From contig CP064990.1 of the NCBI GenBank assembly GCA_016699915.1, forward strand, positions 448,671 to 512,670: 64,000 nucleotides of DNA. The letters are read 5' to 3'. The stretch is from Neisseriales bacterium (GTDB lineage: Bacteria; Pseudomonadota; Gammaproteobacteria; Burkholderiales; Q3-R57-64). Made by a program: the position numbers and the translations under genes. The notes under the pieces were generated by a model. It was not told the origin of the DNA. It searched no databases and saw only the letters and a program-made list of their open reading frames with translations. Positions 48,697-59,340 of the stretch are shown here, piece by piece (position 1 is the first letter of the stretch; every line of letters begins with the position of its first letter).

Positions 48697-51600
48697 GTGA
48701 TCCGTCATTTTACACGGAATTGCCTATTAGTTTGGTTATGCTTTGCTCAGCCAACGGTGGCGCTTAGCTCAGAATTGTCTTGGGTTGGTAATATTTCAGA
48801 GGGCGGCTGGGAGAATGAGATCGACTGGCGTGGTCGCCCTGAAGAGTTGACATCGCATCTTCGACTGCAAAGCACTTATCACTTCAGTACCGATAGCGAT
48901 GTTGAGTTGCGAGCCGGTGCTCAGTGGGTTGATGGCAAGATCTCGTTGGATGAGCTATCCATCGCAGCACATAACCAATTTGGACAGTTGCGTTATGGGC
49001 GACTTCCTTCATTACTTAGTGAACCAGTAGCGTATCAAACACCCACCCAACCAACCACCCAACGACGCACTGCGCCTTTTAACCGCGTGCCTATCTTCTT
49101 TGATACCCTTGAAAGTTTGTCTCACCAAACTATTGCTTATGATTCGCCCCAGTTTGGTGGCTTTCGAATTAGTTTAGCCAGTGGTCAGTCTGACCGATAT
49201 GACAAACCCTTTCGCCAACTTAATGGGAATCAAGCAGTAGTTGAAAGTGAGCGAAGTTTTACGATGGACTTCGTGAATAAACCACGCCAATTCGCGGTAA
49301 AAAGTGTACAAATTAGCTTTCAACCCAATGACCTTTTTTTGGCACGTTATACCCTAGCCCAATATGCCGATCATGTCCCGGTGTTCAAAGAGCGCTCCCA
49401 AACTATGCAGTGGGACAATGACCATACCACCACCATGAAACATGCTGGCGATGTTACTGGTTTTGAACCGGGCTGGATTCAACGCTACGAAGGGGGATTT
49501 TACCAACGTAACATAGCGTTGATGGCGAGTGCTCAGTTTGCTCATTTAAGTGGTTTGCCTTTTGATTTTGATTCGCCACACAGTGCGCCTTTTAACCAAA
49601 GCTATCATGATAGCCGACAAATTGGGCTTTCAGGGGCAATTCGACTGTCGCCACAAGTGACTATTCGTGCTGGCTACGTGACAGGTAAAAGTCATTGGGT
49701 CAACGGTTTGGCTCTATCGACTACCACATCATCGCAAACTTCAAGACGATTTCAAACCATTGATGCCTATCATCCCAATGAAACGGTCGTGATGGATCGA
49801 GGCACGGCTGAATTAGAAGCATTTGTCTGCGCGGAACTGAATCCTGATGGTACCTGTCAACGCTATTATGTACCACAAGACGCGAAAACCCTGGTGACTC
49901 AAATGCTAAGCGATGTTACTGCCGCCGTGGATAAAATTGAACGCTATTTCTTGCACATCGATTTGGCATCACCGACATTATTATTAGACCATCAAGCCGA
50001 AGTTTTAGGTTTGTTAGCCCAAAAAACCCGCACTATTCATTGTAGAAATGATTCAACGTTGGCAGCTTGCCAAACGGGTGTAAAAAATATTTTGCGTGCT
50101 GCTGCCGAGATCCACCATATCAAAACTGATTTTGATCAAGCTATGGATCGTTTAGAACGAGCTCATAACAAGATTCAACATATCTGGCATCAAGTGCAAC
50201 GAGCTATCCCACATCCTGAGACCGAAACAGACTATCTCAAAGAGCTGTATGAATTTGTTGAAAAAGCAGCGGCCTATAGCACTCAACAATTTGCTATGCT
50301 TCATACCTGGGAAGACACCATGGAGCAAGTTGCCCACTATGCAACCGACGAAGCGCAGTCGGTTGCATGTCATGTTCAAGAAGAAGACAGACAGTTTGAT
50401 CAAGACGTACAAGCTGTAGGGGTGGCCAATCGAACTGTCTGTACCAGAGCTCCAGTGCCTTGGGGAGACTATGTTTTTGATGGTGCTCAGGTGATTGATC
50501 CGACAAACCGCAAGTTGTGTGGGACATTTAATGACGACCGTACCTGCAAAACCTACATTACCCTAAAACAAGCGCTTGATGAACTGGATTCGCTAGGAGG
50601 GCACCCTCAAGGCTATTTACAACAGGCTGACCATACAGTGGGTAATATTGTTCAAACCACAGATAATATAACTGGGTATGCTTTGGATCAAGCCTATACA
50701 AACTATTTATACCTGCGAAATACTGATCAAAAAAAAGAAGCAGCACTTGCTATATGGAATGAAGCCTATGAACTAGTTGGGCATTTTCAAAATGTTCAAG
50801 ACTGGTTTACAAGCCTCCAAAGTGTGCAACAGCAAGCGGACTTACTATGGCAGCAAATACAAGCGTTAATTCCTGATCCCACGCAAGCTATACAATCCGA
50901 GCGAACGCACTATGATCGTGCTCAATCAGTGGTGCAAACGATTGCACGTTACGTCAATAGCGTATCGGGCAAGGGGTCATTTTTGAATGACGCTCGACAC
51001 CAGACTATTCCAGACGTTACTTTAATTGTTGGACAAGCCAAGGATTATGCATCCCGTGTGGGCTGTCTACTTAATGCGGAAGATTACTACGCCAAAGCGG
51101 ATAGGATGCGACTAGATATGGTTTGCCAGAACCATACTTTATTTCATTACTTAAGAGAAGCGAAAGAAACTTATGCGCGAGCCCTCCAAAAAAACCCTAA
51201 AGAGATGGATACTGATAGACCCAATCCTGTTTGGGAAAAGGAAGCGTGGCTGGCACTAAAAAACATCAAGGACAACCTGACCGGGCAGATCCAGACGGTA
51301 CAACTCGCGTCATCGTATTGCGCCATCAAACCTTCATCCATGGCATGTCAACAACAAGCTGCTAAAGTGGGCGTAGCACTCCAAGATGCTAACCGAGCTA
51401 GGCAAGAGCTAGATCGGGCCGATCGACGTTGGGCAAGCGTGAGCACAACCATTCATCGAGTCTTAGAGGAGGCCATCAGTGCTATACCCGATGCAGAGCG
51501 GGCGCCTCTCTATAATGAAGATACCTTGAACAAAATTGGAGCGTTTCATGATCAAGCATCCCAGTTTCAATTGCATGTACATGGTTTAAGGGATTCAGCG

Positions 51601-58650: not shown

Positions 58651-59340
58651 TTGGGACTCTTAGGCTTACTAGGAGCTGGTGCTGCAGCTTTCATGATGAT
58701 GAATGATACAGACGAGGAAGGCGAAGAAATAGAAGATGAAACCCTACCTTTACCTGAAGACAAAACGAAAGTTTCCAATAACATGACACTAAGTGATGAA
58801 CTCGTGGCACTACTCAAACTGTTCTATCGAATGGAACAAAAAACAGTTACAAAAAAAACTACAGTAACCAATCAACTGTCTCATCATCAACTTCATCCTT
58901 TCTTATTACTCGCTATGAATGGGGATGGTCCTTTGGTGATGGGATCACAATCAGCACGATATCTTAAGAGCGAGAAGCCTTTACTACCACCGTTACGGGT
59001 GGATTATCATCCCTCTACACGACAACGCTATAACTGGTTGCCTTATCAAGCCTGGCATAACAATCAACCTGAAATAGATGAACCACCAGAAATAATTACC
59101 TTCACCCCTAATCAACCAGTTGAAGTCTACGATGGCAATTTATATGACTTACAGAACCAGGATAGCGACTATCAACAATGGATCATTGGATTAGACTATG
59201 ACTTCACTTCTCAAATAAAACTGAACTGTTCGCTGGGCTATTTAGCCAGTCATAGTATCTATCATTTAACCAACGATAAACGAGAAGATAAGAAGCGAAA
59301 AACCTTTACTGCTGGTATTGATTTGATGATTCGGTTTTAA
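58651..59340 (+). CDS. Giant-gene part 3: Gly/Ala/Leu-rich hydrophobic segment, acidic stretch and C-terminal OMP beta-strands ending in Phe
   Basis: 229-aa ORF whose first candidate start is TTG 58651. The frame is open from 58621 through the G12 tract. The C-terminus WIIGLDYDF...KLNCSLGYLA...TFTAGIDLMIRF has alternating hydrophobic residues and a terminal Phe, which is the beta-barrel assembly signature. Confidence 0.65.
   Translation: MGLLGLLGAGAAAFMMMNDTDEEGEEIEDETLPLPEDKTKVSNNMTLSDELVALLKLFYRMEQKTVTKKTTVTNQLSHHQLHPFLLLAMNGDGPLVMGSQSARYLKSEKPLLPPLRVDYHPSTRQRYNWLPYQAWHNNQPEIDEPPEIITFTPNQPVEVYDGNLYDLQNQDSDYQQWIIGLDYDFTSQIKLNCSLGYLASHSIYHLTNDKREDKKRKTFTAGIDLMIRF

Follow-up and report, generated by a model that had tools for sequence, protein, structure and literature searches.

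The window analysed here is a 64,000-nucleotide (nt) stretch of DNA from a Neisseriales bacterium (positions 448,671 to 512,670 of the forward strand of contig CP064990.1, GenBank assembly GCA_016699915.1), and our subject is a locus at 48697-59340 where NCBI lists three consecutive hypothetical proteins (QQS16302.1-QQS16304.1 = IPK86_02350/55/60). A sequence-only reading had proposed that these three open reading frames (ORFs) are one giant gene broken solely at two poly-G tracts. Repeats, codon usage, the single frame of a distant relative and porin-like halves at the two ends all agree with this proposal, and we consider that the three ORFs very probably represent one gene of about 3,547 codons. 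The similarities of the two ends further make it probable that the product is a porin barrel into which about 3,100 amino acids (aa) have been inserted.

ORF1, ORF2 and ORF3 lie in frames 1, 2 and 1 of the same strand and are separated by gaps of 64 nt and 2 nt, their sizes and arrangement being those described previously (Table 1). At both junctions the downstream frame is already open through the G tract; the stop codons reported to open these frames were re-read and are present, 3-4 codons 5' of the tract in each case (TAA 56570-56572 in frame 2 at junction 1, TAG 58618-58620 in frame 1 at junction 2). The upstream frames close shortly after the tracts, frame 1 10 codons past tract 1, at 56617-56619, and frame 2 5 codons past tract 2, at 58646-58648. 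These stop positions confine a stop-free change of frame to 45 nt at junction 1 and 28 nt at junction 2, and each of the two intervals contains one G tract. A length of G9 or G12 at tract 1 connects frame 1 to frame 2, coding ...DLGGGSYQ..., and G13 or G10 at tract 2 connects frame 2 back to frame 1, so that a single open frame is obtained only with -1 or +2 at tract 1 combined with +1 or -2 at tract 2. As had been predicted for G9 with G13, removal of one G from tract 1 and addition of one G to tract 2 yields 10,644 nt and 3,547 codons with no internal stop. The junction peptides of this fused frame are DLGGGSYQPFSQLSEHNSELLPQSPNPTNPSPNTGILK and IPNSGGGGAGGGLVLGLLG, and tract 2 is then read as four consecutive GGG codons that open the second hydrophobic module.

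The sequence around the junctions also looks like continuous coding DNA. Both downstream ORFs have TTG as their only available start, preceded by the weak Shine-Dalgarno (SD)-like sequences that had been pointed out (AGGA 3 nt before TTG 56684, GGTGGA 6 nt before TTG 58651). Repeat D7 (56663-56707 versus 57263-57307; 82% identity, 600 nt apart and in frame) spans the ORF2 TTG, and at the protein level the two modules of about 200 aa align from PTNPSPNTGILKFHVDLP / PLTPSSNQGILESYVDLP, about 10 residues upstream of this TTG, with a score of 237; the first module copy therefore starts ahead of the annotated ORF2, as had been claimed. Between tract 1 and TTG 56684, codon usage favours frame 2 (+0.18 bits per codon, versus -0.32 and -0.08 for the other frames), and directly after tract 2 it favours frame 1. 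The hydrophobic Gly/Ala-rich plus acidic module that ends ORF2 recurs from inside G12, where a second copy had been recognised (score 66 versus 28.6 +/- 5.5 for shuffles, a score that comes from low-complexity sequence). A promoter/terminator scan revealed no signals above shuffle expectation at either junction. The strongest argument for a single gene, if the split-porin reading is right, is the barrel itself, because it needs both ends.

The two tracts are extreme outliers. The 64 kb contain 17 G/C runs of length 5, three of length 6 and none of lengths 7-9, and then G10 and G12, which are the sole G/C runs longer than 6. With 0.007-0.014 G/C runs of at least 10 expected per 64-kb window, they are far beyond chance expectation, and GGG is the rarest Gly codon (10.5% across 22 housekeeping genes). 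The tracts are thus enriched beyond both composition and codon expectation and are positioned so that a change of one unit toggles the frame, both as found in phase-variable contingency loci. They lie at 74% and 93% of the fused gene length, far from the 5' end.

A distant relative and the porin-like ends

Homologues of the giant protein are exceedingly rare. A HMMER search with aa 1-1200 against 1.84 billion representative proteins returned the protein itself, one relative (as two fragments) and one spurious repeat protein; a word-indexed search with ORF1 and ORF3 returned self only, and scans of genome and metagenome contigs by the family alignment and by ORF2 gave nothing confirmed. No second copy of this organism's locus was found by exact-protein contig look-ups or by the contig scans, and across all of these searches no homologue was detectable outside this lineage. 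PurA, encoded next to the giant gene (47317-48639), reached at best 65% identity among 80 GTDB loci (Chitinimonas), so that species representatives offer no close genome for comparison.

The relative's longest contig, L083 (7,171 nt; JGI 3300035180, Ga0373631_0030216), carries the homologue in one frame from ATG to the contig end, 2,371 codons with a single in-frame TAA inside. It shares 30.5% identity with the window protein over aa 1-1290 (E=2e-161), including 50% over aa 1-72, with the signal peptide and its AQPTVA motif kept, and 49% over the beta-rich N part. All seven close Cys pairs are conserved, in agreement with the disulfide-type modules noticed earlier. The check proposed earlier, whether orthologues are single ORFs, gives one frame in the relative, interrupted by the TAA at codon 933; homology resumes in the same frame after it, and the window gene is intact there.

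Near the end of contig L083, a run of T10 followed by C20 (L083:6-36) precedes the relative's ATG by about 20 nt. A contig from another sample, L002, begins exactly after this run, at L083 position 38. With 16 nt of ordinary sequence after it in the record, the run is probably genomic and not a poly-G artefact of read ends; its length is uncertain, and it is possibly a homopolymer switch in a promoter or 5' untranslated region. The first 249 nt of L002:1-2198 correspond to the 5' end of the relative's giant gene and are followed by unrelated sequence and thrE, L002 being either an assembly chimera or a second, truncated copy. Both family members are tied to extreme G/C runs and both are interrupted in the sequences available, which fits a gene that is often off or counter-selected.

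Porins of the Neisseria PorB type are matched, weakly but reproducibly, at both extremes of the locus and in the right order, their N-terminal part by the start of ORF1 and their C-terminal part by the end of ORF3. Against the Pfam profile Porin_4, the N-terminal 400 aa scored 16.4 bits, with residues 70-170 placed on profile positions 71-169 of 310. When aa 23-365 were joined to the last 85 or so aa of ORF3, a second stretch was matched and the score was 24.8-25.0 bits, compared with 16.0-20.1 bits when the C part was reversed or shuffled; attached to the N part of the relative, the C piece was placed on positions 271-305 of 310. The sole match among 177,635 PDB sequences was N. gonorrhoeae PorB (4AUI), in two collinear stretches, the C part matching its residues 267-306. 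BLASTP against PorB likewise gave two collinear high-scoring segment pairs (E=0.004 for the N part), and hhalign aligned the N part with PorB 98-167 (P=2.5e-4; FGQLRYGRLPSLLSE with FGKLRVGRLNSVLKD, IAYDSPQFGGF with VRYDSPEFAGL) and the C part with PorB at P=6.7e-5.

We also built a PorB hidden Markov model (HMM) from nine real PorB sequences and assessed significance against 200 shuffles. The C part scored 14.2 bits at 270-308 (best of 200 shuffles, 5.8), the relative's N part 10.6 bits at 55-160 (above the 200 shuffles) and the window N part 5.9 bits at 102-166 (best N shuffle, 0.8). By this model the C part ranks first among 911 six-frame segments of the window, and the relative's N part first among 1,677 ORFs from 84 loci; a PorB query against the same 1,677 ORFs found no porin that could serve as local comparator. 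The N-part tail is less clear: against PorB 241-269 the relative reached 0.7 bits, with 4 of 200 shuffles at least as good, and the window was not significant. This tail may correspond to strands 12-13 (NSHNSQ...VTPRVSYAHG, with SVHDSQ...ITARVGYIEG in the relative), in an alignment that does not reach significance. Aligned with PorB, the C part spans strands 14-16 together with the region of loop 7; counted roughly by amphipathicity, the N and C parts have about 12-13 and 3-4 strands. The protein ends in ...FTAGIDLMIRF, with a terminal Phe and hydrophobic residues 3, 5, 7 and 9 from the end, so that the outer-membrane C-terminal signature previously assigned to ORF3 is upheld and extends to PorB-like final 3-4 strands. 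Taken together, a predicted signal peptide, a C-terminal beta-signal with Phe, and a collinear porin-motif match at both barrel ends, local and weak as it is, are features shared with PorB-type porins. A type 5a autotransporter is not indicated, as profile PF03797 reached 12.7 bits (E=0.1) with a match that lies within the N part.

Anatomy of the fused protein and its neighbourhood

Table 1. Features of the giant gene and its flanks, in window coordinates
Feature	Position	Strand	Remarks
hisS-yfgM-bamB-der order, then purA	42849-48639		directly upstream of giant gene
ORF1	48697-56619	+	frame 1, GTG start, 2640 aa
Start and predicted signal peptide, aa 1-22 (...AQPTVA, then LSSE)	48697-48762	+	hydrophobic segment residues 9-27; kept in relative
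Porin-like N part, aa 23-345, about 12-13 amphipathic beta segments	48763-49731	+	PorB match to about HMM position 166, possibly 269
Cys-pair/helical region, aa 366-1062	49792-51882	+	seven close Cys pairs
Charged Q/E/K/S-rich helical/low-complexity region, repeats D3 and D4, no Cys	51883-56579	+	composition, repeats
Poly-G tract 1	56580-56589	+	G10 as deposited
Two repeat modules of about 200 aa	56654-57250 and 57251-57817	+	repeat families D2, D5, D6, D7
ORF2	56684-58648	+	frame 2, TTG start, 654 aa
Hydrophobic Gly/Ala-rich helix 1, aa 3209-3236, glycine-zipper-like	58322-58405	+	Kyte-Doolittle 19-mer maximum 2.43
Acidic Thr-rich tandem repeat (TTGEETTTED)n	58416-58558	+	30 nt x 4.8 copies, 99% identical
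Poly-G tract 2	58622-58633	+	G12 as deposited
Hydrophobic helix 2, aa 3311-3335, and acidic tail	58628-58752	+	second copy of helix-plus-acidic module
ORF3	58651-59340	+	frame 1, TTG start, 229 aa
Porin-like C part, aa 3463-3547, and stop codon	59083-59340	+	PorB loop-7 region and last three strands
Near-perfect 14-15-bp hairpin	59449-59481		between convergent giant gene and PhnZ-like HD-domain gene; found by eye

Hydrophobic segments of the fused protein are limited to residues 9-27, 3209-3236 and 3311-3335. NCBI starts IPK86_02350 (2620 aa) 20 codons after GTG 48697 and so cuts off the signal peptide that the relative conserves; in the alignment, the relative's ATG falls on an in-frame ATT at 48688. 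In the Cys-pair region, 4 of the 7 close pairs are C-x8-C, and the region appears as hairpins followed by long helices, AlphaFold2 drawing beta-hairpins and then long helices at low confidence (predicted local distance difference test, pLDDT, 43). The conserved close pairs would fit an oxidising compartment outside the cytoplasm. Residues from about 1063 to 3200 form a charged helical and low-complexity stretch that contains both repeats of about 200 aa, and the DNA of these repeats (56654-57817) also holds an additional 120-nt sub-repeat. Residues 3237-3290 are an acidic stretch whose DNA contains the 30-nt tandem repeat, which is in frame between the two hydrophobic helices and could vary in copy number; tract 2 sits immediately before helix 2.

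Scans of the three ORFs against Pfam, NCBIfam and PHROGs identified no family and no catalytic or known adhesin domain. We dropped a phage or mobile origin of the insert, as PHROGs gave no match and the fusion of N part to insert is kept in the relative, and likewise GlyGly-CTERM/PEP-CTERM sorting signals, as the hydrophobic modules are internal and followed by acidic and not basic residues. In base composition, GC content is 0.45-0.47 at 48-54 kb versus a window average of about 0.40, and from 50000 to 58000 the coding strand shows a strong excess of A over T (AT skew 0.16-0.32). The low-complexity coding sequence also casts a shadow ORF of 217 aa on the minus strand (57523-58176).

Upstream of the giant gene, bamB lies at a distance of about 3 kb, which places a barrel-assembly factor nearby. 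The hairpin downstream is probably a bidirectional terminator; the terminator scan did not list it because it lacks a T run. An Rfam scan of the window found tRNA-Leu only. Further away, 27-11668 encodes a MobA-like transferase, a 1031-aa Fe-S/FAD oxidoreductase, two amidohydrolases, xanthine-dehydrogenase-type FAD and molybdopterin subunits and a xanthine/uracil permease, and looks like a purine or pyrimidine catabolism block, notable for a 0.9-Mb genome.

Frame state, competing explanations and proposed mechanism

CP064990 is a closed circular metagenome-assembled genome (MAG) of 912,463 bp, Fred_18-Q3-R57-64_MAXAC.425_cln, from wastewater sludge (Fredericia). It represents a novel family of Burkholderiales (GTDB o__Burkholderiales without family; closest 16S Paludibacterium, 90.2%) and is 74.4% complete with 0.03% contamination by CheckM (Supplementary Data 3, Singleton et al. 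2021, PMC8012365). Coverage was 22.7x for Nanopore and 12.1x for Illumina, with a polymorphic rate of 2.2e-4, and R9.4.1 reads were assembled with CANU and polished with Racon, then twice with medaka and once more with Racon on Illumina reads. Homopolymers of at least 10 remain problematic even for R10.4 consensus (PMC9262707). Every further gene that we examined in the window is full-length, and intact frames also contain eight A8-A9 runs; polishing thus worked up to 9-mers, which has no bearing on G10 or G12. The deposited sequence is compatible with both a genuine phase-OFF state and a consensus error, and we put the chances that the deposited OFF/OFF frame state is real rather than miscounted at roughly even.

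On the whole we lean, with some reserve, towards one gene that encodes a split PorB-type barrel and whose two poly-G frame breaks would act as switches. Several observations weigh against this. R9.4.1 chemistry with low-coverage polishing makes the exact G10 and G12 lengths untrustworthy. The joined Porin_4 score stays below the Pfam gathering threshold of 27, the window N part scored within its full ORF reaches 1.0 bit and rank 6, and a two-sequence profile had no match in the PDB; middle and tail fragments of the N part were not significant against the PorB HMM, so that the middle strands are not recognisably PorB-like, and AlphaFold2 yielded no usable structure model of the N part (pLDDT 29.5). 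The relative's TAA (L083:2853-2855 = L001:2282-2284) is identical in contigs from three JGI metagenomes (L001, L083 and L084); it could be a nonsense allele, a pseudogene or a site of readthrough, and the family may tolerate inactivation or be decaying. Two hydrophobic helices would normally stop Sec transfer, a poor fit with a surface-displayed insert, and the surface or host-interaction role suggested in the sequence-only reading, which we too infer, sits uneasily with them as simple surface display.

The most serious competitor is a pure assembly artefact, in which the gene is intact (for example with G12 and G13) and both frameshifts are homopolymer miscounts. The breaks fall exactly on the two longest runs, in an R9.4.1 CANU assembly that received a single Illumina Racon round at modest depth, and such runs trouble even newer chemistry. 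Nanopore consensus tends to under-call long runs, and under-calling would fit both G12 read as G10 and G13 read as G12. However, the intact neighbouring genes and A8-A9 runs speak against widespread error, and a miscount would explain the frame state but not why two extreme G runs made of the rarest Gly codon occur in one gene, where tracts this long would slip in vivo at any true modal length. We consider a pure artefact possible, though on balance unlikely. A decaying pseudogene, permanently inactivated during genome reduction, would suit a 0.91-Mb genome with a CheckM completeness of 74% and the stop that the only known relative carries in three metagenome assemblies, and interruption in both family members keeps this explanation alive. 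Yet no other stop or frameshift occurs across 3,547 codons in a 40% GC genome, the lesions are confined to hypermutable sites, the Cys pairs are conserved and the N part is 49% identical to the relative, and deletion or rapid erosion is the expected fate of a dead gene this large (10.6 kb, 1.2% of the genome); decay therefore appears improbable.

The NCBI annotation implies three separate genes, whose products would be a secreted N-terminal protein, a coiled-coil protein anchored by its tail and a small beta protein exported with its hydrophobic N-terminus as signal peptide. ORF2 does end in a hydrophobic helix, and the hydrophobic start of ORF3, ending AAA before F, could pass as a signal peptide. 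This arrangement is nevertheless very hard to credit, given TTG starts with weak or misplaced SD sequences, a repeat unit and codon usage that extend upstream of the ORF2 start, a second hydrophobic module that starts inside tract 2, and 3-4 terminal porin strands that could not form a barrel alone; that both junctions lie on the sole long G runs would be an unexplained coincidence. Stable G10 and G12 DNA might alternatively give low-level full-length protein through polymerase or ribosome slippage, and a reduced genome, breaks on long homopolymers and stops soon after each tract are in keeping with this; Tamas and colleagues reportedly described slippage on poly(A) tracts in reduced endosymbiont genomes in 2008. 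Known cases involve A/T runs, though, full length would need two independent slips, +1 and -1, and no stimulatory structure or motif turned up in the promoter/terminator scan, which was the only scan made and was not aimed at them. We regard slippage as highly unlikely.

Under the favoured reading of a switched, split barrel, the product would begin with a Sec signal peptide and the first 12-13 or so strands of a PorB-type barrel, continue into the insert of about 3,100 aa and finish with the last 3-4 strands and terminal Phe. The insert would comprise disulfide-stapled hairpin and helix modules, about 2,100 aa of charged helical and low-complexity repeats, and two hydrophobic helices, each with an acidic stretch. 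By alignment with PorB the two ends may form one barrel, and if the alignment of the N-part tail is right the insert may sit in extracellular loop 7; the barrel would form only if all three segments were translated as one chain. By analogy with contingency genes the tracts are, likely in principle, hypermutable candidate switches whose length may vary within the population. As G runs this long slip during replication, the gene would be expected to switch among three states: the full-length protein, a 2,640-aa truncation lacking the hydrophobic helices and the barrel end, and an ORF1+ORF2 fusion lacking the barrel end. Because the tracts lie far from the 5' end, the OFF states would still give very long truncated products.

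Two models could accommodate the hydrophobic helices. In model A, a helical hairpin would anchor the chain in the inner membrane while its ends form an outer-membrane barrel; in model B, glycine-zipper-like segments would get through the translocon, like the hydrophobic N-terminus of VacA, to act on a different membrane. A bolder picture, which we offer as speculative and rather doubtful, is that a PorB porin serves as carrier of an insert of about 340 kDa from a late loop, a type-5f-like display on a 16-strand scaffold, under two independent poly-G switches in a host-dependent 0.9-Mb betaproteobacterium. The glycine-zipper helices could then enter a partner or host membrane, or anchor the same chain in the inner membrane so that it spans both membranes. 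In function, the giant product may serve the envelope or cell contact, in a bacterium that is probably host-dependent. As a closed genome of 0.91 Mb would be unlikely to devote 1.2% of its length to this gene without strong benefit, the gene is a prime candidate for host or partner contact.

Comparison with known systems

Homopolymer indel errors in Nanopore MAGs (PMC9262707) resemble this case in the R9.4.1 chemistry, the low-coverage polish, breaks at runs of at least 10 and ORFs that fuse after a 1-nt change. The case differs in that error explains the frame state and not the existence or placement of the tracts, and in that no other examined gene of the 64 kb is affected. Long homopolymers in Nanopore MAGs accordingly need read-level checks before pseudogenes, operons or phase variation are called. 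In Neisseria and Campylobacter, surface-protein genes are known to be switched by homopolymers, with NalP, MspA and about 100 predicted loci in N. meningitidis and the poly-G loci of C. jejuni (PMC5084427, PMC3723659, PMC3025981). As in such contingency genes, intragenic G runs of at least 8 set the frame of a predicted envelope or surface protein here and are outliers in a run-poor genome; unlike them, two tracts occur in one gene, at 74% and 93% of its length, and the host is uncultured, with a genome of 0.9 Mb and tracts known from one assembly.

The trimeric porins of the PorB type (Porin_4 PF13609, Porin_1 PF00267) share with the giant protein a signal peptide followed by a beta-1-like strand, the pre-loop-3 motif (FGQLRYGRLPSLL) and YDSPxFxGF at matching positions, and the last strands with their terminal Phe; the host is likewise a betaproteobacterium, closest by 16S to Chromobacteriaceae. 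In contrast, ordinary porins have 300-400 aa and no alpha-helical hydrophobic segments, whereas about 3,100 aa are inserted here before the last 3-4 strands. The Helicobacter Hop adhesins (type 5f) provide the closest architectural parallel. Their barrel is interrupted by a mostly alpha-helical passenger, which makes up a single 'loop' (Coppens et al. 2018, as summarised in PMC8151025), is predicted to have 8 strands and carries a passenger of 15-110 kDa after the first strand (PMC8151025); several Hop genes are described as switched by simple-sequence repeats (PMC10564699). The likeness would be that the passenger interrupts the barrel instead of hanging off a terminus, a split that in our protein is read from the porin matches. 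The scaffold here, however, would be a PorB-like 16-strand type with an insert of about 340 kDa before the last 3-4 strands, and no Hop or HP_OMP family was among the Pfam matches even at E<=10. Homopolymer-controlled giant surface genes are already known, but a PorB-type scaffold with so large an insert would be new. If this reading is true, passenger-interrupted barrels would extend beyond the 8-strand Hop proteins of Helicobacter, very large passengers could be carried by general porins, and the question would arise how the beta-barrel assembly machinery (BAM) joins strands 3,100 residues apart.

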